A stretch of DNA of 64,000 nt, from positions 5,766,001 to 5,830,000 of the forward strand of contig NC_090340.1 of the NCBI RefSeq assembly GCF_035084215.1. The letters run 5' to 3'. Of the stretch, positions 9,020 to 31,330 are shown one piece after another. Under the pieces are notes generated by a model. That model was not told where the DNA came from and made no database searches. It saw only the letters and a list, made by a program, of their open reading frames with translations. Both the position numbers and the translations under genes were made by a program. This DNA comes from Heptranchias perlo. Taxonomy: Eukaryota. The first letter of the stretch is position 1; each line of letters starts with the position of its first letter.

Positions 9020-11269
9020 ATATGTAAAAGGAGAATCCGAGAGCGAGAGGAGAGTCCGAGAGGTGAGCGCAGTGTAAAAGGACAGTCCAAGGGTGGGAGG
9101 AGAGTCCGAGACGTGAGCGCAGTGTAAAAGGAGAGTCCGAGCGGTGAATGCAGTGTAAATCTAAGGCAAGTCATGTCAGCAGAGCTCACACCCGTGATAT
9201 GCTCCTCCTGCACTATGTGGGAAGTCATGGACACTACCGGTGTCCCTGGCGACCATGTGTGCATGAAGTGTGTGCAGCTGCAGCTACTGTCTAACCGCAT
9301 TTCGGAGCTGGAGCTGCAGGTGGATTTACTGTGGAGCATCTGCAATGCTGAGATTATCGTGGATAGCATGTTCAGTGAGGTGGTCACACCATAGGTAGAG
9401 ATTACACAGGCAGAAAGGAAAGGGGTCACCGCCAGGCAGAGTAAAAGCGCTAGGCAGGTAGAGCAGGTGTCCCCTTGGGTCATCTTCCTCTCAAACAGAT
9501 ATACCGCTTTGGATACTGCTGGGAGAGGTGGCTTATCAGGGGAAAGCAGCAAGAGCCAAGTTCGTGGCACCACGGATGGCTCTGCTACACAGGAGGGGAG
9601 GAATAAGAGTGGCAGGGCTATATTGATAGGGAATTCAATTGTAAGAGGAACAGATAGGTGTTTCTGCGGACGCAAACATGACTCCAGGATGGTATGGTGC
9701 CTCCCTGGTGCTAGGATAAAGGATGTCACAGAGCGGCTGCAGGGCATTCTGGAGGGGGAGGGTGAACAGCCAGTTGTCATGGTCCACATCGGTGCCAACG
9801 ATATAGGTAAAATAAAAGGGATGAGGTCCTGCAAGGTGAATTTAAGGAGTTAGGAGAAAAATTAAAAAGCAGGAACTCAAAGGTAGTGATCTCAGGATTA
9901 CTACCAGTGCCACGTGCTAGTGAGTATAGGAACAGGAGAATAGACCAGATCAATGCGTGGCTGCAGGGACGGTGTGGGAGGGAGGGATTTAGAAGGTGGG
10001 ACCTGTACGAGCCGGACGGGTTACAACCGAGCAAGACCGGGATCGATGTTCTCGCGGGGGTGTTTGCTCGTGGTATTGGGGAAGTTTTAACCTAGAATGG
10101 CAGGGGGATGGGAACCTGAACAAGGAGACAGAGGAGGAGGAAACAAGGATAGAAACAAAAGACAGAAAGGGAAGAAGCAATAATGAAAGGCAGAGAAAAC
10201 AAGGGCGAAAAACAGATAGGCCATAGCGCAAAATAGAACTAAGATGACTAGCAATCTTAAAAAGACAAGTCTAAAGGCATTGTGTCTTAATGCGTGGAGC
10301 ATTCGCAATAAGCTAGATGAATTAATAGCGCAGATAGATATCAACGGTTATAATGTAGACATGGCTGCAGGGCGACCAAGTATGGGAACTGAACATCCAG
10401 AGATATTCAATATTTAGAAGGGACAGGGAAAAGGGGAAAGGAGGTGGGGTAGCGTTGTTCATAAAGGAGGAAATCAATGCAATAGTGAGGAAGGATCTTG
10501 GATCGGAAAATCACGATGTGGATTCTGTAAGGGTGGAGCTAAGAAACACCAAGGGGCAGAAAACGTTGCTGGAGGTTGTTTATAGGCCCACAAACAGTCG
10601 TGGAGATGTAGGAGAGGGCATTAGACAGGACATTAGAGATGCATGCAAGAAGGGTAGAACTTTAATCATGGGGTGACTTTAATTTATAAATAGATTGGTC
10701 AAACCAAATTAGCAATACTACTTTCGGGGAGGAATTCCTGGAGTGTGTACGTGATGGTTTTCTAGACGAATACGTTGAGGAACCAACTAGAGAACAGGCG
10801 ATCCTGGGCTGGGTATTGGGTAATGAGAAAGGATTAATTAACATTCTTGTTGTGCGGGGTCCCTTAGGGAAGAGTGACCATAACATGAGAGAATTCTTCA
10901 TTAAGATGGCGAGTGATGTAGTTGAACCCGAAACTCGGGTCCTGAATCTAAATAAAGGACATTACGAAAGTATGAGGTTCGAGTTGGCTATGATAGGTTG
11001 GGGAACTTTACTAAAAGAGATGACGGTGGATAGGCTAATATTTAAAGAAAGTGTGCAGGAATTACAACAATTATTCATTCCTGTCTGGTGCAAAAAATAA
11101 AACAGGAAAGGAGGCTCAACCGTGGCTTACAAAAGAAATTTGGGATAGTATTAGATCCAAAGAGGAGACATGTAAAATTGCCACAAAAAGTGGCAAGCCT
11201 GAGGATTATAAAAGGTGTGAAAACATAACACTTGGAGGGCATTAAAGGGATTTGACAAAGTCAGCATGG
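9020..11269 (+). mobile_element. CR1 copy 1, 5' part: 5' UTR repeats, ORF1 (zinc finger/zipper/SGNH esterase) and APE endonuclease
   Basis: CSSCTMWE...CMKC, ILIGNSIVRG, VHIGANDI; APE motifs LNAWSIRNK, VVYRP, MGDFN, SDH. A ~50-bp unit repeats at 9023, 9074 and 9124. Stops, frameshifts and an internal deletion near 11210. Confidence 0.92.
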
Positions 11270-13617
11270 CATTATTTTTCTTATTTGTTTATAGGATGTG
11301 GGCATCGCTGGCGAGGCCAGCGTTTATTGCCCATACCTAATTGCCCTTGAGAAGGTGGTGGTGCGCCGCCTTCTTGAACCGCTGCAGTCCGTGTGGTAAA
11401 CGTTCTCGGGCAATGCTTTTAGGAAGGGAGTTCCAAGATTTTGACCCAGTGACAATGAAGGAATGGTGATATATTTCCAAGTCGGGGTGGTGTGCGACTT
11501 GGAGGGGAACGTGCAGGTGGTTTTGTTTCCATGTGCCTGCTGGAGGGAAGGTCATTGGTGAAGCAGCTGAAGATGGGTGGGCCTAGGACACTGCCCTGAG
11601 GAACTCCTGCAGCAATGTCCTGGGGCTGAGATGATTGGCCTCCAACAACCACTACCATCTTCCTTTGTGCTAGGTATGACTCCAGCCACTGGAGAGTTAT
11701 CTCCCTGATTCCCAATGACTTCAATTTTACTAGGGCTCCTTGGTGCCACGCTCGGTCAAATGCTGCCTTAATGTCAAGGTCAGTCACTCTCACTTCACCT
11801 CTGGAATTCAGCTCTTTTGTCCATGTCTGCACCAAGGCTGTAAAGAGGTCTGGAGCCGAGTGGTCCTGGCGGAACCTAAACTGAGCATCGGTGAGCAGGT
11901 TATTCGTGAGTAAGTGCTGCTTGATAGCACTGTCGACGACACCCTTCCAACAATTTGCTGATGATTGAGAGTAGACTGATGGGGTGGTAATTGACCAGAT
12001 TGGATTTGTCCTGCTTTTTGTGGACAGGACATACCTAGGTAATTCTCCACATTGTCGGGTAGATGCCAGTGTGGTAGCTGTACTGGAACAGCTTGGCTAG
12101 AGGCGCAGCTAGTTCTGGAGCACAAGCCTTCAGCACTGCAGCCGGGATGTTGTCAGGACCCATTGCCCTTGCTGTATCCAGTGCACTCGGCCATCTCTTG
12201 ATATCACGTGGAGTGAATCGAATTGGCTGAAGACTGGCTTCTGTGATGGTGGGGATACCGGGAGGAGGCCGAAATTGATCATCCACTCGGCACTTCTGGC
12301 TGAAGATAGTTGCAAACACTTCAGCCTTGTCTTTTGTACTCACGTGCTGGACTCCACCACCATTGAGGATGGGGATGTTTGCAGAGCCACCTCTTCCCGT
12401 TAGTTGTTTAATTGTCCACCACCATTCACGGCTGGATGTGGCAGGATTGCAGCGCTTCGATCTGATACGTTGGTTGTGGAATCGCTTAGCTCTGTCTATA
12501 GCATGTTGCTTCCGCTGTTCAGCATGCATGCAGTCCTGAGGTGTAGCTTCACCGGGTTGGCACCTCATTTTTCGGTACGCCTGGTGCTGCTCCTGGCATG
12601 CTCTTCTACACTCGTCATTGAACCAGGGTTAATCCCCTGGCTTGTTGGTAATGGTGGAGTGAGAAATATGCTGGGCCAAGAGGTTACAGATTGTGCTGGA
12701 ATACAATTCTGCTGCAGCTGATGGCCCACAGCGCTTCATGGATGCCCAGTTTTGAGCTGCTAGATCTGTTCTGAATCTATCCCATTTGGCACGGTGATAG
12801 TGCACACAACACGTTGGACGGTGTCCTCCGTGCGGAGACGGGACTTCGACTCCACGAGGACTGTGCGGTGGTCACTCCAACCAATACTGACATGGACAAA
12901 TGCATTTGCGACAGGTAGATTGGTGAGGATGAGGTCAAATAAGTTTCTCCCTTGTGTTGGTTCGCTCACCACCTGCCGCAGGCCCAGTCTGGCAGCTATT
13001 TCCTTCAGGACTCGGCCAGTTCGGTCAGTAGTGGTGCTACCGAGCCACTTTTGGTGATGGACATTAAAGTCCCCCAACTAGAGTACATTCTGTGCCCTTT
13101 CAACCCTCAGTGCTTCCTGCAAGTGGAGTTCAATATGGAAGAGGACTGATTCATCAGCTGAGGGAGGACGTAGTTGGTTATCAGCAGAAGCTTTCATTGC
13201 CCATGTTTGATCTGATGCCATGATATTTCATGGGGTCCAGAGTCAATGCTGAGGACTCCAAGAGCTACTACCTCCTGACTTTATATCACTGTACCGCCAC
13301 CTCTGGTCGGTCTTGCCTGCCGGTGGGGCAGGACATACCCAGGGATGGTGATGGAAGAGTCTGGGTCGTTGGCTGAAAGGTATGATTCTGTGAGTATGGC
13401 TATATCAGGCTGTTGCTTGGCTAGTCTGGGGACAGCATTCCCAATTTTGGCACAAATCCTCAGATGTTAGTGAGGATGATTTTGCAGGGTCGATGCCGGG
13501 TGGTCCGTCCGGTTTTATTCTTATTATGAATTTCCTGCGAGATTGTACAATTTAGTGGCTTCCTGGCCATTTTAGAGGGCAATTAAGAATCAACCACATT
13601 ACTGTTGGTCTGGAGAG
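11270..13617 (-). mobile_element. Second-family CR1-group LINE nested inside CR1 copy 1
   Basis: MGDFNVHHQKWLGS (APE), MGPDNIPAAVLK, DIKAAFDRAWH, GVPQGSVLGP. It splits the host motif QSQHG|FMKG and lacks ~660 bp at ~11542 relative to the 26-27.8 kb copy. Confidence 0.9.
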
Positions 13618-14885
13618 TTTTATGAAAGGGAAATCATGCTTAGCAAATCTACTGGAGTTTTTTGAGGTTGTAACTAGTAAATTAGATAGGGGAGAACCAG
13701 TTGATGTTGTTTATTTGGATTTTCAGAAGGCTTTTGATAAGGTCCCACACAAGAGGTTAGTGTGCAAAATTAAAGCAGGTGGGATTGGGGGAATATATTG
13801 GCATGGATTGAGAATTGGTTGACAGACAGGAAACAGAGAGTAGGAATAAACGGGTCTTTGTCCAGGTGGCACGGAATGACTAGTGGGGTACTGCAGGGAT
13901 CAGTGCTTGTGCCCCAGCTATTCACAATACATATCAATGATTTGAATGAGGGAACTAAATGTAACATTTCCAAGTTTGCAGACGACACAAAGCTGCGGTG
14001 GAATGTGAGCTGTGAGGAGGATGCAAAGAGGCTCCAATGTGATTTAGACAAGTTGGGTGAGTGGGCAAGAATATGGCAGATGCAGTATAACATGGATAAA
14101 TGTGAGGTTATCCACTTTGGTTGTAAAAACAGAAAGGCAGATTATTATCTGAATGGTGATAGTTTGGGAAAGGGCGAGTTGCAACGAGACCTGGGTGTCC
14201 TTCTACACCAGTCGCTGAATCGAGCATTCAGTTGCAGCAAGCAGTTAGGAAGGCGAATGGTATGTTGGCCTTCATTGCAAGAGGATTTGAGTGCAGGAGA
14301 TGGGATGTCTTACTACAGTTAAACAGGGCCTTGGTGCTACCACATCTGGCGTATTTTGTGCCGTTTTGGTCTCCTTATCTGAGGAAGGATGCCCTTGCCT
14401 TGGAGAGAGTTCAGCAGAGATTTACCAGACAGATTGCTGGGATGGCAGGACTGACGTATGAGGAGAGATTTGGTCGACCAGGCCTATATTCACCAGAGTT
14501 TAGAAGAATGAGAGGTGATCTCATGGAAACATGTAAAATTCTGACAGGACTAGACCGACTAGATGCAGGGAGGATGTTCCCGATGGCTGTAGAGTGCAGA
14601 ACCAGGGGTCACAGCCTCAGGATACAGGGTATGCCATTTAGAAACGAGATGAGGAGAATTTTCTTCACTCAGAGAGTGGTGAACCACAGAAGGCCGTGGA
14701 GGCCAATTCATTAGATGTATTCAAGAAGGAGATGGATATATTTCTTAATGCTAAAGGGATCAAAGAACACGGGGAAAAGTGGGAACATATTGCTGAGTTA
14801 GACGATCATCCATGATGATTTTGAATGGCGGAGCAGGCCCGAGGGGCCGAATGGCTCCTATTTTCTATGTTTCTATGCTTCTGTG
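13618..14885 (+). mobile_element. CR1 copy 1, 3' part (RT and 3' tail)
   Basis: MKGKSCLANLLEFF, YLDFQKAFDKVPH, KFADDTK and a TTTCTATG-type tail. Confidence 0.92.
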
Positions 14886-15725: not shown

Positions 15726-16700
15726 ATGGCAGCACAGCTCGCAACGGTGGTATGCTCCTCCTGCACTATGTGGGAAGTCACGGGCACTACCAGTGTCCCT
15801 GGCGACCATGTGTGCAGGAAGTATGTCCAGCTGCAGCTTCTGGCTAACCGTCTTTCGGAGCTGGAGCTGCGGGTGGATTCACTGTGGAGCATCCGCGATG
15901 CTGAGAATATAGTGGATAGCACGTTCAGTGAGGTGGTCACACCGCAGGTAAAGGTTACGCAGGCAGAAAGGAATTGGGTGACCGCCAGGCAGAGTAAAAT
16001 GACTAGGCAGGTAGAGCTGGAGTCTCCTGGGGCCATCTCCCTCTCAAACAGATATTCTGCTTTAGATACTGTTGGGGGAGATGGCTTATCAGGGGAAAGC
16101 AGCAAGAGCCAGGTTCGGGGCACCACGGGTGGCTCTGCTGCACAGGAGGGGAGGAAGAAGAGTGGCAGGGCTATAGTGATAGGGGATTCAATTGTAAGGG
16201 GAACAGATAGGCGTTTCTGCTGCCGCAAACGTGACTCCAGGATGGTATTTTGCATCCCTGGATCTCGGGTCAAGGATGTAACGGAGCGGCTGCATGGAAT
16301 TCTGGAGGAGGAGGGTGAACAGCCAGTAGTCGTGGTCCATATTGGTACCAACGACATAGGTAAAAAAAGGGGTGGGGTCCTGCAAGGTGAATTTAAGGAG
16401 TTATGAGATAAATTAAAAAGCAGGACTTCAAAGGTAGTGATCTCATAATTACTACCGGTGCCACGTGCTAGTGAGTATAGGAACAGGAGAATAGACAGGA
16501 TGAATGCGTGGCTGCAGGGATGGTGTAGGAGGGAGGGATTTAGATTCCTGGGACATTGGGACTGGTTCTGGGGAAGTTGGGACCTGTACAAGCGGGACGG
16601 GTTACACCCGAGCAGGACCGGGACCAATGTCCTCGCGGGGGTGTTTGCTAGTGCTGTTGGGGAAGGTTTAAACTTGAGTGGCAGGGGGATGGGAACCTGA
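15726..16700 (+). pseudogene. CR1 ORF1 (CCCC zinc finger, leucine zipper, SGNH/GDSL esterase), interrupted by stops
   Basis: CSSCTMWE..CRK, VIGDSIVRG (GDS catalytic block), HIGTND, DGLH; in-frame stop at 16404-16406. Confidence 0.9.
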
Positions 16701-16846
16701 GCGGGGAGTCAGAAGGGAATAAAGTTGAGAGCAGCAAGAGAGGGGAAGACCCAGGGGAAATCTACAATACAAATAGTACAAACAGTTGTTCAAGAACAAG
16801 TAAAAGGGAAAAGCGTAGAACAGCGGAATGAAAGTGTACTTTAGTC

Positions 16847-19818
16847 ATGACAGATAAAATAAAAACTAGAAGGCGTAAGGCGATTAACCCAGCATCAAAG
16901 CTGTGGCAGGGGGTTGGGAACCTGAGCAGGGAGACAGGGGAAAGCGTGTCAGGAAGGGACAGAAAGTATGGAGTAAAAGGTAAAGTGTTAAAAAAGGAAA
17001 AAGCAGGAACTAAGTGTCTCAAAACATATTTGAAAGTTCTTTATCTGAATGCACGTAGCATTCGTAACAAAATGGACAAGTTAACGGCACAAATAACGAC
17101 GTATGGGTATGATCTTGTGGCCATTACAGACATATGGCTGCAGGGTGACAACGACTGGAAATTAAATATGTCAGGTTATTTAACAATCAGGAAGGACAGG
17201 CAGGAAGGAAGGGGAGGTGGGGTGGCTATGTTAATAAAGGAAGGAATCACTGTAATACAGAGAAATGATATTGGGACAAAGGATGGGGACAAAGAAACAG
17301 TTTGGGTAGAGATAAGGGGAAAAAACACTAGTGGGCATAGTATATAGGCCTCCTAATAGTTGCAACTCTGCTGGAAGAAGTATTAATCAGGAAATAGTCG
17401 GGGCATGTAAGAAGGGGACAGCTATAATTATGGGGGATTTTACCTATCATATCAACTGGACAAATCAAATTGGGCAGGGCAGCCTTGAGGAAGAGTTTAT
17501 TGAGTGTATTAGGGATGGATTTCTTGAGCAGTATGGAACTGATACTACAAGGGGGCAGGCAACCTTAGACCTGGTCCTGTGTAATGAGCCAGGATTAATT
17601 AATAATGTCCTAGTTAAGGATCCCCTTGGAATGAGTGACCATAACATGGTTACATTCCATATCCAATTAGAGTGTGAGAAGGTAGGTTCTCAAACAAGCG
17701 TACTGAGCTTGAACAACGTAGACTATGATGGTATGAAAGCGGAATTGATTAAAGTGGACTGGGAAAATAGATTAAAGTGTAAGAGCAGTGGTGTTCATTC
17801 AAGGAGTTATTTTACAACTTTCAGAAAATATATATTCCACTGAGGAAAAAAGGGTGTAAAAGAAATGACAGCGATCCGTGGCTAAGTAAAGAAATTATGG
17901 ATAGTATCCAACTAAAAACAAGGACATATAAGGTAGCCAAACTTAGTGGGAGGATAGAAGATTGGGAAGTCTTCAAAAGACAGCAAAACGTAACGAAAAG
18001 ATTGTTTAAGAAAGGGAAGATAGATTATGAAAATAAATTAGCAAAAAATATTAAAACAGATAGGAACAATTTCTATAGTTATATAAAAAGAAAAAGGGTG
18101 GCTAAGGCAAACGCAGGTCCCTTAGAGGACGAGACCGGGAAATTAATGGTGGGAAACATGGAGATGGCAAAAATGCTGAACAAATGTTTTGTTTCAGTCT
18201 TTACGGTAGAGGACACTTAGAATATCCCAACACTGCACAAACAGGGGATCTATCGGGGGAGGAGCTAAATACGATTACAATCACTAAGGAATTGCTACTC
18301 AGTAAATTAATGGGACTCAAGGCGGATAAATCCCCTGGACCTGATGGCTTACATCCTAGGGTCTTGAGGGAAGTGGCAGTAGGGATTGTGGATGCTTTGG
18401 TAATAATTTTCCAAAATTCTCTGGACTCGGCAAAGGTCCTGGCAGATTGGAAAACTGCTAATGTAGCACCCTTATTTAAAAAGGGTAGCAGGCAGAAGGC
18501 TGGAAATTGTAGACCAGTTAGCCTAATATCTGTGGTGGGTAAAATGTTGGAGTCTATTATTAAGGAGGCAGTAGCAGATCATTTGGATAAACAGAATTTA
18601 ATAGGACAAAGTCAGTATGGCTTTATGAAGGGGTAGTCATGTCTGACAAATTTGCTTGAGTTCTTTGAGGACATAACGTATAGGGTGGATAAAGGGGAAC
18701 TAGTGGACGTAGTGTATTTAGAATTCCAGAAGGCATTCGACAAGGTGCCACATAAAAGATTATTGCTCAAGATAAAGAATCACTGGATTTGGGGTAATAT
18801 TCTGGCATGGGTGGAGGATTGGTTATCTAACAGGAAGCACAGAGTTGGGATAAATGGTTCATTCTCGGACTGGCAACCAGTAGCCAGTGGTGTTCCGCAG
18901 GGGTCAGTGCTGGGTCTCCAAATCTTTACAATCTATATTAACGATTTGGAGGAGGGGACCGAGTGTAACATATCAAAGTTTGCTGATGATACAAAGATGG
19001 GAGGGAAAGTAGAGAGTGAGGAGGACATAAAAAATCTACAAGGGGATATAGACAGGCTGGGTGAGTGGGCGGAGATTTGGCAGATGCAATACAATATTGG
19101 AAAATGTGAGGTTATGCACTTTGGCAGGAAAAATCAGAGAGCAAGTTATTATCTTAATGGTGAGAAACTGGAAAGTACTGCAGTACAAAGGGATCTGGGG
19201 GTCCGAGTGCAAGAAAATCAAAAAGTTAGTATGCAGGTGCAGCAGGTGATCAAGAAGGCCAACGGAATGTTGGCTTTTATTGCTAGGGGGATAGAATAAA
19301 AAAACAGGGAAGTATTGCTGCAGTTATATAAGGTATTGGTGAGGCCACACCATGAATACTGCATACAGTTTTGGTGTCCATACTTAAGAAAAGACATACT
19401 TGCTCTCGAGGCAGTACAAAGAAGGTTCACTCAGTTAATCCCGGGGATGAGGTGGTGGACATATGAGGAGAGGTTGAGTAGATTGGGACTCTACTCATTG
19501 GAGTTCAGAAGAATGAGAGGCGATCTTATTGAAACATATAAGATTGTGAAGGGGCTTGATCGGGTGGATGCGGTAAGGATGTTCCCAAGGATGGGTGAAA
19601 CTAGAACTAGGGGGCATAATCTTAGAATAAGGGTCTGCTCTTTCAAAACTGAGATGAGGAGAAACTTCTTCACTCAGAGGGTGGTAGGTCTGTGGAATTT
19701 GCTGCCCCAGGAAGCTGTGGAAGCTAGATCATTAAACAAATTCAAAACCGAAATAGACAGTTTCCTAGAAGTAAAGGGAATTAGGGGTTACGGGGAGCGG
19801 GCAGGAAATTGGACATGA
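16847..19818 (+). pseudogene. CR1 ORF2 (APE endonuclease plus reverse transcriptase), disrupted
   Basis: YLNARSIRNK, IVYRPP, SDH, KSPGPDG, FQKAFDKVPH, GVPQGSVLG, KFADDTK and RGH motifs spread over several ORF pieces. Confidence 0.92.
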
Positions 19819-21664
19819 ATTTAAATTTGATGTTGGGATCAGATCAGCCATGATCTTACTGAATGGCGGAGCAGGCTCGAGGGGCCGATTGGCCTATTCC
19901 TGCTCCTATTATTTATGTTCTTATGTTCTTATAAATTTTAAAAGGAGCTTCGTTTTCTGCACAGTTCAGTACCACACTGTACATTCACCATATGAGCTTT
20001 CAGCCGGTGAGTAAAACTTATTCTAATATTTCTTCCCTCATTGTTTGAAGAGTAAGCGATGTCACCTTTCGGGTTGGGAACGCACCTCTGTCAGTTTTCG
20101 ATCAACTGGAAGCATTTTTATTACAACTCTTGTTTGCATTGAACCTTATTTTCTGGGAAACATCATGAAACTGCATTACATTGTAAGGAAGTTCTGGTTT
20201 GCACGGTGGTTAAGTGCCCCACTGTTTCGGCACTGGGATATTAGTTCAAACTCAACCCCGACTAACGGGATCAAAATCCCATCCTTCTGTCCGTTGGTGC
20301 ATCCCAGGGAAATAAGTTACAGTACACGAAGGTGCCCAGAATTCAGCAATATAATGACACTATCCTGCCAATATTTTTCCAAAATGATCATTGGGACCGT
20401 AAGTATGATAGGGGATGATAGAATCTGTGAAGGAAACGTTCCAAGTAAAATCGAAGACAATGATAATTCAGTGTCAGCTAATTGTTAGCTGAACGTAGCC
20501 ATATTTTGAATTAGACACATAAAGGATATCTTTCATGCGGCGTACTTAACATGTCTCCACAATTAAATAACATTTCCAATTCGAGCAAAGTGTTTTCCGT
20601 TTCCCACTGATGGAAAGCTGGCAGTGGAACTCCAGACTCAGCCCAGCGATTGGAATCGGCAGTGTACTAAAGCGAGACTGTTGAGGTTCTTTCCACTGGG
20701 CTGGGGTGATTAATCCCATGACAAGTTGTTTGGATTTTGCACATAATGCGACAGTCCAACCTACTATGAAAGGCGGTTTATTAGGCTACGTGAGAACTTT
20801 AAAAAAAGCTCACAAGGTGAGCTGACCACCGCCATTTTTGAATATAAAAATTACACCTGGAGCTCAAAACTGCATATATTACCGAGCACGCATGAGCAAA
20901 CATCGCCTATACTCAGTACTTCGGAATAGCTGTACTCTAATCTCCAAGCTACAATACCACAAGATGCGGGGGGCGGGGTCATCACTTTACTATTGCACCG
21001 TTTAATGTTCTCACGTAATTAATTTGAACGCTGTTTTAACGGTGCGCTGGACACAATTGAAATAGCCTTGCTAACAGTTGTATAAAAATATCCCACAAAT
21101 AAGTTCAGGCCAACGCAATACCTGGAGCACTATGACAAGCAGTTAATTACCATAAACAGCACATTGTGAAAAATGCAGAATGTGAAATCAATCCAACCTT
21201 TTGACAATAATCTAAATTGGAGATTGAAAAAGTTAAGAGAAATAATTTTTCCCCTAATAATCTAACTTGTCCTAAACCACCGTCGAATTGAACCGTTCTA
21301 GTTCTACTTCCCTCCACTGTTGTGAACGATGGAGAACTATTCATTTGGAATACATGGGGAACTGCTTGACCTAACCGTTGTTAACACGATCTTATTTTAG
21401 TAAATAACACTGCTCCCTAAGCAATGGCGACCACCAATTTGGAGAGAAAGCAAAGTGCTTGCAACAAAATAAACTGCGCTTATATCCAAACAGTATACTG
21501 CAGTACATGTCAACAAAGCACTGAAGTTAACTTTGACATGATTGCGTACCACGGTTGGGAGCCCTTGAAAATCGTCTGTCGCTGTCACAAGGAATTAATG
21601 CAACAGGGAACCGCCTCAACTCTCACATGTTTAATATACTTTCGGAATTATCAATAATCTCATC

Positions 21665-26017: not shown

Positions 26018-27780
26018 GTTTTTTACATTCATTCATGGGATGTGGGCGTCGCTGGCGAGGCCGACATTTATTGCCCATCATTTGAGAAGGTGGTGGTGAG
26101 CCACCTTCTTGAACCGCTGCAGTCCGGGTGGTGAACGTTCTCCCACAGTGCTGTTGGGAAGGGAGCTCCAGGATTTTGACACAGCGACGATGAAGGAACG
26201 GCGATATATATCCAAGTCGGGATGGTGTGTGACATGGAGGGGAACGTGCAGGTGGTGCTGTTCCCATGTACCTGCTGCTGTTGTCCTTCCAGGTGGTAGA
26301 GGTCGTTGGTTTGGGAGGTGCTGTCGAAGAAGCTTTGGCGAGTTGCTGCAGTGCATCCTGTGAATGGTACACACTGCAGCCACAGCGCGCTGGTGGTGAA
26401 GGGAGCGATTGTTTAGGGTGGTGGATGGGGTGCCAATCAAGCTGAATGCTTTGTCCTGGATGGTGTCGAGATTCTTGAGTGTTGTTGGAGCTGCACCCAT
26501 CCAGGAAAGTGAAGAGTATTCCATCACACTCCTGACTTGTGCCTTGTAGATGATGGAAAGGCTTTGGGGAGTCTGGAGGTGAGTCACTCGCCGCAGAATA
26601 CCCAGCCTCTGACCTGCTCTTGTAGCCACAGTATTTATATGGCTGGTCCAGTTAAGTTTCTGGTCAATGGTGACCCCCAGGATGTTGAAGTTGCGGGATT
26701 CGGCGATGGTAATGCCGTTGCATGTCAAGGGGAGGTGGTTAGATTATCTGTTGTTGGAGATGGTCATTGCCTGGCACTTGTCTGGCGCGAATGTTACTTG
26801 TCACTTATCAGCCCAAGCTTGGATGTTGTCCAGGTCTTGCTGCATGCGGGCTCGGATTGCTTCATTATTTGAGGGGTTGCGAATGGAACTGAACACTATG
26901 GAATCATCAGCTAACATCCCCATTTCTGACCTTATGATGGAGGGATGTTCATTGATGAAGCAGCTGAAGATGGTTGGGCCTTGGACACTGCCCTGAGGAA
27001 CTCCTGCAGCAATGCCCTGGGGCTGCGATGATTGGCCTCCAATAACCACTACCATCTTCCTTTGTGCTAGGTATGACTCCAGCCACTGGAGAATTTCCCC
27101 CCTGATTCCCATTGACTTCACTTTTACTAGGGCTCCTTGGTGCCACACTTGGTCAAATGCTGCCTTGGGCAGTCACTCTCACCTCACCTCTGGAATTCAG
27201 CTCTTTTGTCCATGTTTGGACCAAGCCTGTAATGAGGTCTGGAGCCCAGTGGTCCTGGTGGAACCCAAACTGAGCATCGGTGAGCAGGTTATTGGTGAGT
27301 AAGTGCCGCTTGATAACATTGTCGACAACACCTTCCATCACTTTGCTCACGATTGAGGCTAGACTGATGGGGCGGTAATTGGCCAGATTGGATTTGTTCT
27401 TATTTTTGTGGACAGGACATACCTGGCCAATTCTCCACATTGTCGGTTAGATGCCAGTGTGGTAGCTGTACTGGAACAGCTTGGCTAGAGGCGCAGCTAG
27501 TTCTGGAGCACAAGTCTTCAGCACTACGGCCGGGATGTTGTCGGGGTCCATCGCCTTTGCTGTATCCAGTGCACTCAGCCGTTTCTTGATATCACGTGGA
27601 GCGAATCGAATTGGCTGAAGACTGGCTTCTGTGATGGTGGGGATATCGGGATGAGGCCGAGATGGATCGTCCACTCGGCACTTCCGGCTGAAGATGGTTG
27701 CAACCGCTTCAGCCTTTTCTTTTGCAATCACGTGCTGGACTCCACTCTCATTGAGGATGGGGATGTTTGCAGAGCCTCAT
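26018..27780 (-). mobile_element. 5'-truncated second-family CR1-group LINE
   Basis: NYRPISLASIVSK, GVPQGSVQGP, LADDS, ILGVTIDQKLNW; co-linear with 11270-12400. Confidence 0.9.
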
Positions 27781-28899: not shown

Positions 28900-31330
28900 C
28901 GTGGGAAGAGGAACAGCCAGAAGCCGTGGTCCATGTGGGAACCAATGACACAGGAAGGAAAATGGTTGAAGTTCTGCAGTCAGAGTTTCAGGAGCTAGGG
29001 CGGAAGTTAAAGAGCAGGACCTCAAAGGTAGTGATCTTTGGATTACTCCCATTGCAACGCGCTAGTGAGTACATGGATAGTAGGACAAGGCAAGTAAATG
29101 CGTGGCTGGAGAAATGACGCAGTAGGGAGGGCATTAGTTTCATGGGGCATTGGGACCAGTTCTGAGGCAGGAGGGATCTGTTCAAGATGGACGGCTTGCA
29201 CCTCAACAGAGCTGGGACCAATGTCTTCGCGGGGAGGTTAACTAGTGCTGTGGGGGAGGGTTTAAACTAATTTGCAGGGGGGTGGGCACCAGAATGAAAT
29301 ATTAGGAAGAAGAAACAAGGTGAACAGTGGACTGGGAGGGGCAATTAACAATTGAGTAAATAATCGTTCAGAAATAAGAGGGATCAGAAGGGGGGAAATG
29401 TGAGGCTGTCGAAGACGAGGTTCGAGTGCATGTGCTTAAATAGACCTAGCATGGAAAATAAGGTTGGTGAGCTGCAGGCACCAGTTGCCACACGAGACTA
29501 TGATATAGTGACAATAACAGAGCCCTGGCTTAAAGATGGCGATGATTGAGTAGTTAATATTCCTGGCTACAATGTATTCAGGAAAGGTAAGGGAGGAATG
29601 AAAGGAGTTTGGGTGGCAGTATTGAACAAAGAAACTATTATAGTACTGGAAAGAGAGATGATGTAGTTGAAGGGTTAAAGTCAGAATCTATTTGGATAAA
29701 ATTATGGAACAATAGAAGAGTTATTATGCTACTCGGTGCATACTATAGGACACCAAATGGTTGGAAAGAGATAGAGGAACAAATTCGAAGGCAAATTATA
29801 GAAGAGCAGCCATAATGCGGGACTTCAATCATTCAAATATGGTCCGGGATAGTAACAGTGTAAAGGACAAAGAGGGAGAGGAATTCCTGAAATGTATACA
29901 AGAGAACTGTCTGCGTCAATGTGTTTCCAGCTCAACGAGGAAGGAAGCAGCGCTGGATCTAGTTCTGGCCAAAGTGGTGGGGAAAGTGGAGCATGTTTCA
30001 ATGGGGGAGCACTTGGAAAAATATGGGCTAATAAATGAAAGTGAGCAAGGATTTCTTCGAGGAAAATCCTGTTTGATAACTGGTTTGAGCTCTCTGATGA
30101 ATTAACGGAGTGGGTTGATGAGGGTTGTTTGGTTCATTTTGTGCACATGGACATTCAAAAGCCATTTGCTAAAGTACCACATAATAGACTTGTTAGCAAA
30201 ATTAAAGCCCATGGGATTAAGGGGACATTGGCAGCATGGATGCACAATTGGTTAAGGGACAGAAAGCAGAGGGTAATGCTGAACGGTTGTTTTACAGACT
30301 GGGGAGAAGTATACGGTGGTGTTCCTGAGGGGTCGGTATTGGACCATTGTTCTTTGTGATATATATTAATGACCTGGATTTGGGTATAGAGGGCATAATT
30401 TCAAAGTCTGTAGATGACATAAAACTCGGAAATGTGGTTAAACAATATGGAGGATAGTAGCAGACTTCAGGAGGACACAGATAGACTGGTGAAATGGGCA
30501 GACACGTGGCAGATGAAATTTAATGCAGAGAAGTGTGGAGTGATACATTTTGGTAGGAAGAATGAGGAGAGGCAATATAAACTAACTGGTACAATTTTAA
30601 AGGAAATGCAGGAACAGAACCTGGGGGCGTGCATTACTCGAATCTTTGAAGGTAGCAGGAGAAGTTGAGAAGGCTGTTACAAAAAGCATATGGGATCATG
30701 GGCTTTATTAATACTGCATATAATACAAAAGCAAGGAAGTTATGCTAAACCTTAATAAAACACTGGTTAGGCCTCAGCTGGAGTATTGTGTTCAATTCTG
30801 GTCACAACACTTTAGGAAGGATGTCGAGGCCTTAGAGAAGGTGCCGAAGAGATGTACTGGAATGGTACCGAATATGAGGGACTTTAGTTATGTGGAGAGA
30901 TTGGAGAAGCTGGGGTTGTTCCATTTAGAACAGAGAAGGTTAAAAGGAGATTTGATCGAGGTGTTCAAAATCATGAACGGTTTTGATGGAGTAAATAAGG
31001 AGAAACTGTTTCCAGTGGCAGAATGGTTGGTAACTCGAGGACACAGATTTTAACGTGATTTGCAAAAAAGCCAGAGGTGACATGAGGTAACTTATTTTTA
31101 TGCAGCAAGTTGCTATGATCTGGAATCCACTATCTGAAAGCGTGGTGGCAGCAGATATAATAATAACTTTCTAAAGGGAATTGGATCAATACTTGAAGAG
31201 AAAACGTTTACAGGGCTATGCGGAAGAAGCAGTGGTGTTGGACTAAATGGATAGCTCTTACAAAGGGCAGCAAAGGCATGGTGGGCAGAATGGAGTCCTT
31301 GTGTGCTCTATCATACTATGAAACTATGAA
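28900..31330 (+). mobile_element. CR1 copy 3 (ORF1 3' half, deleted APE, RT, tail)
   Basis: VHVGTNDTG, DGLH, GEGLN*, YYRTP, GVPEGSVL, RPQLEYCVQFW. Confidence 0.88.

Follow-up and report, generated by a model that had tools for sequence, protein, structure and literature searches.

How is the second open reading frame (ORF2) of a CR1 retrotransposon reached by the ribosome when it lies in the -1 frame relative to the first (ORF1)? This question is raised by a stretch of 64,000 nucleotides from Heptranchias perlo (NC_090340.1, positions 5,766,001 to 5,830,000; hereafter the window), which carries three decayed copies of a long interspersed nuclear element (LINE) with an SGNH-esterase ORF1 and an ORF2 encoding an APE endonuclease and a reverse transcriptase (RT). 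According to the original prediction, a slippery heptamer at the end of ORF1, T_TTA_AAC, leads by a -1 shift to an ORF1-ORF2 fusion of the gag-pol kind. It was found that the signal at the junction is real and deeply conserved in CR1, and the comparisons described below indicate that the ORF1 end is probably a programmed -1 ribosomal frameshift site from which such a fusion would be made. The idea of a gag-pol-like fusion is supported by the conserved heptamer, its register, the phase of ORF2 and the existence of lineages without an AUG, from which we infer the shift itself.

The junction in copy 2 and its closest relatives

Relatives of copy 2 were sought in the 3.25 Gb genome, which yielded 2653 candidates. 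The counts for copy 2 were taken from the best 30, the window copy included. The features of the junctions are the following:

15726..16676, + strand: ORF1 of copy 2 with zinc finger (CxxC..CxxC), coiled coil and SGNH esterase; interrupted by a stop at 16404, its terminal stop replaced by TTG
16649..16651, + strand: last stop of the -1 frame (TAG), five codons before the heptamer, bounding the shift window; a stop in 29/30 copies
16667..16673, + strand: slippery heptamer T_TTA_AAC, the final two ORF1 codons (Leu-Asn); 30/30 copies, 10/10 lineages
16674..16676, + strand: place of the ORF1 stop; TTG in copy 2, TAG in 29/30 relatives, TAA or TGA in other lineages
16679..16693, + strand: G-rich motif TGGCAGGGGGATGGG, a candidate 3' stimulator, with nucleotides frozen in five lineages
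16667..17047, + strand: -1-frame linker, hydrophilic and basic, 127 codons long; the TGA at 16829 is private to copy 2
10086..10095, + strand: junction of copy 1, TTTAACC-TAG, a private change; TTTAAAC in 28/30 relatives
29261..29270, + strand: junction of copy 3, TTTAAAC-TAA; relatives TTTAAAC in 26/30, TTTAAAT in 3/30

All coordinates given beforehand for the three copies were correct on re-reading. ORF1 of copy 2 reads GGT TTA AAC in the register claimed, the -1 frame behind the TAG at 16649-16651 reads FKLEWQGDGNL..., the TGA at 16829 and the ATG at 16847 are present, and the junctions of copies 1 and 3 are as described. TTTAAAC occurs four times on the + strand of the window, twice at CR1 junctions; together with the esterase-selected loci described below, this exceeds what coincidence would give. 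Copy 3 has lost one base just past the ORF1 stop, and its phase is broken.

TTTAAAC was found in every one of the 30 copies. It is directly followed by the TAG stop in 29 of them, a state that is hidden in copy 2 by the private change of TAG to TTG; contigs from four sequencing runs span the junction and show the TAG. The -1 frame is open over the 127 codons up to the endonuclease in 26/30 copies. At position 16829 the copies read AGA (28), AAA (1) and TGA (1), so that the TGA is private to copy 2, and at 16847 they read ACG (24) or ATG (6), the ATG being a minority variant of CpG type. No Met is found in the linker in 20/30 copies, and the Met codons of the others are scattered. A stop kept at 16829 and an AUG kept at 16847 had been named as the sequence evidence that would speak against a frameshift; neither is conserved in the 30 copies, and this objection thus fails, whereas the expected -1 frame, stop-free to the endonuclease and lacking a conserved AUG, was observed. 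The start of the endonuclease itself had been misplaced at 16847. As judged from an intact sister copy of the same family (L245), the region matched by the Pfam APE model starts with the Asn encoded at 17048, codon 128 of the -1 frame, and the first Met of this sister (residue 136) lies behind that conserved Asn.

Conservation of the heptamer

Ten lineages were compared, namely the majority readings of nine shark lineages (54, 38, 30, 20, 20, 19, 5, 2 and 1 copies) and a distant metagenome contig (L215). Their ORF1 ends are 44-82% identical where aligned. The codon comparison covered the last 30 ORF1 codons, columns upstream of -30 being omitted because one majority reading was misaligned there. 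Leu-Asn is written TTA AAC in 10/10 lineages, and the preceding codon (-3) always ends in T while encoding Gly, Thr, Ala, Tyr, Asp or His. Third positions are invariant in 3/3 heptamer codons versus 3/27 upstream columns. Three other invariant Leu columns use 3-5 codons, whereas the Leu of the heptamer is only TTA. The heptamer is therefore frozen at synonymous positions, as had been expected of a slippery site, while other invariant Leu codons vary. The tandem arrangement G_GGT_TTA plus T_TTA_AAC, noted in copy 3, was only partly general: T_TTA_AAC is present in all ten lineages, G_GGT_TTA in two. The ORF1 stop is TAG in 7/10 lineages and TAA in 3/10, and TGA was seen in one further locus (L179) and in a published lizard consensus. 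An equivalent of the -1-frame stop at 16649-16651 exists in 10/10 lineages, as TAG, TAA or TGA.

A sample blind to the heptamer was obtained by choosing loci by the Pfam esterase domain only; 62 of the 150 matches listed were examined. TTTAAAC was located exactly 71 bases past the start of the DGLH codons in 51/62 loci, with a stop next in 48. Nine loci differ, and in three of these an indel further upstream has displaced the heptamer by one base; two more lack the anchor. In the 51 in-register loci, APE was in the -1 frame in 36, in frame 0 in 8, in +1 in 5 and not found in 2; the off-phase loci are read as decay indels, without a case-by-case check. The 36 loci with APE in -1 comprise 28 that are open, 21 of these without Met. 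From 34 random 10-kb stretches, five ORF1 ends were recovered, which carry TTTAAAC (3), TTTAAAT (1) and GTTAAAC (1).

Phase of the linker and start codons

The linkers between the heptamer and the APE Asn measure 127, 94, 68, 61, 60, 55, 47 and 35 codons, and all of them are in -1 phase. In the seven linkers counted, the -1 frame has no stop versus 1-12 stops in each other frame. Dinucleotide shuffles (1000 trials) left the linkers open in 0 to 25% of cases; for the stretches ahead of the first Met, the range was 0.1 to 36%. Upstream of the heptamer, the -1 frame is closed within at most five codons in all ten lineages, which leaves ORF2 without a usable AUG on that side. No Met precedes the APE Asn in lineages A127, A94, G and L215. 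In this comparison of AUG codons, no ORF2 start was found to be conserved behind the ORF1 stop or overlapping with it, the Met positions differing among the remaining lineages. In Zorro3, the endonuclease mutation N17A drops retrotransposition below 5% (PMC1965478), and N17 may be the equivalent of the conserved CR1 Asn. Stop readthrough was rejected, since ORF2 lies outside frame 0 in young lineages; the majority reading of frame 0 in lineages D and E is ascribed to noise in G-run length.

Two linkers look recombinant, one joining A to a second junction similar to that of L179 and the other joining A to an endonuclease start of D type, and both keep the phase. In the second half of the copy 2 linker, from about 16904 (16904-16935), the TGGCAGGGGG junction known from a different CR1 lineage recurs, though the heptamer that belongs to it is missing, and one sequencing-run contig shows a joint 16673-16904. 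ORF1 and junction seem to have been swapped between ORF2s as a module (lineage A mosaics; L179 and L141).

Sequences downstream of the heptamer

A G-rich block about 5 nt after the heptamer had been proposed. The TGGCAG block does lie at 5 nt, but the run of at least four G begins 6-10 nt past the heptamer (10/10 lineages). The motif TGGCAGGGGGATGGG is identical at the nucleotide level in lineages A, B, C, G and I, with one change in H, while neighbouring -1 codons vary. A two-tier G-quadruplex was predicted in 8/11 natural copies, and the G-richest 25-mer of the region sits here in 4/11. In reporters, G-quadruplex RNA placed 5-8 nt behind UUUAAAC stimulates -1 shifting, the structures used being three-tier (PMC3919603). 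The G-rich motif 5-10 nt downstream is a candidate for the stimulator and would act as a G-quadruplex or as a protein-bound site; the adjacent stop may contribute.

Two other candidates were rejected. A local 3' hairpin or pseudoknot is not favoured, no stable shared fold being obtained in the 11 copies by a folding procedure that excludes pseudoknots. A long-range partner of the G motif, a C-rich part of ORF1 some 640 nt upstream, came out best in A, B and G but not in C, D, F and L215, with a mixed result in E, and was rejected as a general feature. As a separate observation, the G-rich tract of old copies (L155-L194 and L264-L303) is hypervariable between 10 and 40 nt past the heptamer, its length and sequence changing to a far greater extent than the flanks.

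Identity of the element

The remaining features of copy 2 are the following:

17048..19818, + strand: ORF2, APE endonuclease and reverse transcriptase, decayed in copy 2; intact in the sister copy L245
19819..19932, + strand: 3' untranslated region with a hairpin-like inverted repeat and a repeat tail of TTCTTATG type, read directly

Among named sequences, the nearest relatives of ORF1 come from sharks and rays. The ORF1 of L133, which belongs to a sister lineage and is intact, contains, as read by eye, a CxxC-x-CxxC zinc finger and a coiled coil with a heptad run of Leu. Its esterase corresponds to Lipase_GDSL_2 (Pfam PF13472, 63 bits above the cut-off) and matches PDB 4C1B, the esterase of ZfL2-1 ORF1, with an E value of 4.9e-29; this match stops at residue 308/317, short of the terminal Leu-Asn. 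In L245, the frame entered at the heptamer runs 1051 codons without a stop and contains Pfam matches to APE (128-329) and RT (618-823). No match was obtained for the APE region against PDB by phmmer. The 3' end, read at 19819-19932 and in L245, has the hairpin-like inverted repeat (not folded with a tool) and a short tandem repeat, and no poly(A). An ORF1 with zinc finger, coiled coil and esterase is the type IVB of vertebrate CR1, CR1 subgroup 7 (Metcalfe and Casane, PMC4120745). Published vertebrate CR1 elements share this ORF1 architecture, the APE-RT ORF2 and the repeat tail, and the junctions of the catshark, dogfish and ray consensuses are nearly identical by eye (PMC13343379). By its domains and its likeness to published rows labelled CR1, the element is classed as a canonical vertebrate CR1 with a type IVB ORF1.

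Fragments of a different, GC-richer RT element lie on the minus strand at 11422-12628 and 26081-27172 of the window. The former sits inside CR1 copy 1, which is broken from about 11207 to 13619.

Spread beyond this genome

ORF1 relatives ending in Leu-Asn or Ile-Asn account for 59/93 proteins and include frogs, lizards, a turtle, a parrot and a chimaera. Residue -3 takes 10 amino acids in these 59; a T-ending codon is possible there in 58/59 versus 24/59 at -4. Only 41/59 are compatible with a -1 stop five codons upstream, so a stop at that place is not universal. Where it is kept, it may possibly guard against out-of-frame entry into ORF2.

In the consensus sequences of the PMC13343379 supplement, whose entries were covered to 400 letters each with most junctions outside, TTTAAAC followed by a stop gave 23 matches. 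Among the 22 listed, 18 lie at an ORF1 end by eye and four are unrelated. The 18 belong to alligator, crocodile, bearded dragon, bullfrog, coelacanth, bowfin, chimaera, rays, sharks and one halosaur row labelled Crack. Cross-species DNA scans returned one useful locus of eight from metagenomes and one short contig among genome contigs, and no junction was found in the viral contigs and plasmids scanned.

Some further observations concern annotation. The teleost row AldAff_Crack-2 of the same supplement has an esterase-like ORF1 end with TATTTAAAC-TAG by eye, whereas the paper reports that none was detected for Crack. Public gene models of rays and a bird (P0094, P0038, P0021 and P0095) absorb CR1 ORF1 under host gene names, and two of them (P0094 and P0038) run ORF1 straight into FKL... 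and the endonuclease. CR1 ORF1-like sequence is also labelled Providencia alcalifaciens (L223, a 506-base contig) and Pseudomonas aeruginosa (P0008), which is probably vertebrate contamination.

Proposed mechanism and alternatives

In the mechanism proposed, most ribosomes would terminate at the end of ORF1, releasing a protein of about 320-350 aa. In a minority of ribosomes, the tRNA-Leu and tRNA-Asn would re-pair from UUA AAC to UUU AAA, a backward slip of one base that may be helped by the G-rich motif and by slow termination at the adjacent stop. Translation would then continue as ...GLN-LEWQGDG... through a variable linker of 35-127 codons, giving at a low rate a Gag-Pol-like fusion of ORF1, linker, endonuclease and RT of about 1,350-1,400 aa.

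The main rival is termination-reinitiation of the kind described for human L1, an element able to begin ORF2 at codons other than AUG: its ORF2p is made by inefficient termination/reinitiation (10.1101/2020.06.18.158667), and any sense codon is tolerated in place of the ORF2 AUG (PMC1965478). Applied to CR1, ribosomes would restart at a downstream AUG or non-AUG codon, Leu-Asn being kept for the protein and the heptamer simply inherited. The L1 precedent, the four lineages with a Met shortly before APE and the CTG, GTG and TTG codons within the AUG-less linker are consistent with it. It does not account for the frozen TTA and AAC, for a codon -3 that ends in T whichever of six amino acids it encodes, for the 23-127 open -1 codons before any Met or for the phase kept by recombinant linkers. 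No start codon is common to the lineages, and the ATG of the G motif is in frame 0 and opens an ORF of three codons. Reinitiation as the general route is thus considered unlikely. A mixed use, in which an ancestral frameshift is kept in AUG-less lineages while AUG-bearing lineages also or mainly reinitiate and yield free ORF2p, is a tentative possibility; it is compatible with frameshifting rather than exclusive of it. The Met codons of lineages B (-15; 17/19 in-phase copies) and C (-8/-3; 12/12) are family traits, as this proposal would expect. In both lineages, however, heptamer and G motif are kept, and the 52-53 codons ahead of the Met are open, as they are in 4.3% of shuffles for each.

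Expression of ORF2 from a spliced or subgenomic RNA, with TTTAAACTAG serving as branch point and 3' splice site or as a promoter element, draws on the resemblance of CTAG|A to a YAG acceptor in 7/10 lineages. TAG is replaced by TAA in 3/10 lineages and by TGA in L179 and the lizard consensus, for which reason a splice acceptor at the junction was rejected; moreover, the upstream sequence is purine-rich without a pyrimidine tract, and it is the stop identity, not the AG, that is kept. This route appears most improbable. It is also very unlikely that heptamer and G motif are a DNA or RNA element of another kind (packaging, template switching, or a stop-coupled -1 slip of a single P-site tRNA), with the linker as an N-terminal ORF2 extension made in some other way. 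Such a role would agree with the G motif being the recombination join point in lineage A, where it is duplicated at 16904, and with its hypervariability in old copies. The exact X_XXY_YYZ register, the -1 frame closed at most five codons upstream and open downstream, and the overlap without AUG fit tandem slippage instead.

Several observations weigh against programmed frameshifting. The ten lineages are not ten independent tests because they are related, and three of them rest on 1-2 copies. The matches in the supplement give no denominator because they were found by motif search, and the DNA evidence includes no bird or turtle sequence, those groups being represented by protein only. In lineages B, C, H and I, a Met lies 3-32 codons ahead of the APE Asn and would suffice for reinitiation there. 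In three old lineages the phase is blurred by the varying length of the G-run: the -1 frame is weakly favoured in D (17/32 copies, p 0.016, with the modal length also in -1), whereas no phase is discernible in E (14/12/11 among 37) or F (3/4/5 among 12). With regard to the stimulator, no stable 3' hairpin was found (z from -2.1 to +1.7 in 11 natural copies), a G-quadruplex is unpredicted in 3/11 copies and only two-tier elsewhere, the main G-run begins up to 10 nt after the heptamer, past the usual 5-8 nt, and the long-range partners of the G motif are not conserved.

Comparison with known systems and significance

The coronavirus 1a/1b junction uses U_UUA_AAC for -1 frameshifting. CR1 has in common with it, and with the gag-pol of retroviruses and LTR (long terminal repeat) elements, an X_XXY_YYZ site at the end of an upstream structural ORF and an AUG-less enzyme ORF in the -1 frame. 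Unlike these viral sites, the CR1 junction has no pseudoknot or stable hairpin that could be found, carries a G-rich motif and an immediate stop, and belongs to a non-LTR element without protease. Among LINEs, silkworm SART1 translates ORF2 by UAAUG stop-start coupling and zebrafish ZfL2-1 by reinitiation. No conserved slippery heptamer is known in L1, SART1 or ZfL2-1. Human L1, SART1 and ZfL2-1 resemble CR1 in their bicistronic RNA and low ORF2 output, and ZfL2-1 also in its esterase fold (4C1B); in contrast to the fusion proposed for CR1, they make a separate ORF2p with its own start.

It had been assumed that LINE ORF2s studied so far depend on reinitiation or stop-start coupling. This is correct for L1 reinitiation, but frameshifting in a LINE is not without precedent because Dictyostelium TRE5-A and TRE3-A are said to need a -1 frameshift for ORF2 (PMC5911963). 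Such a shift is the one proposed for CR1; the two TRE elements differ in being amoeba elements of another lineage. In the part examined of the Atkins 2016 review, HeT-A and TART are the only non-LTR elements named (PMC5009743). No report of a CR1 frameshift was found in the open literature; Haas 1997, Kajikawa 1997, Kapitonov and Jurka 2003, and the SART1 and L1 reinitiation papers lay outside the search and may mention one. The word 'frameshift' is absent from the examined text of PMC4120745 and PMC13343379, as is 'slippery' from that of the latter, and the translation of ORF2 is dealt with in neither.

CR1 is the main retrotransposon in most vertebrate orders (PMC13343379), and a Gag-like role has been argued for ORF1 (PMC3905857). 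On balance, it seems more likely than not that CR1, the dominant LINE family of jawed vertebrates, has used a retrovirus-like -1 frameshift for more than 400 million years. Its RT would then be joined, in the manner of Gag-Pol, to a membrane-binding esterase ORF1, with the help of a stimulator that is not a pseudoknot but consists of the G-rich motif and the adjacent stop. If so, frameshifting would fix the ratio of ORF1 to ORF2 and tether the RT to the lipid-binding ORF1 shell, and the analogy with Gag would reach gene expression. The known -1 sites would gain one that is chromosomal, deeply conserved and served by an unusual stimulator, and both the annotation of CR1 and the assays applied to it would have to allow for an ORF2 without a free N-terminus.

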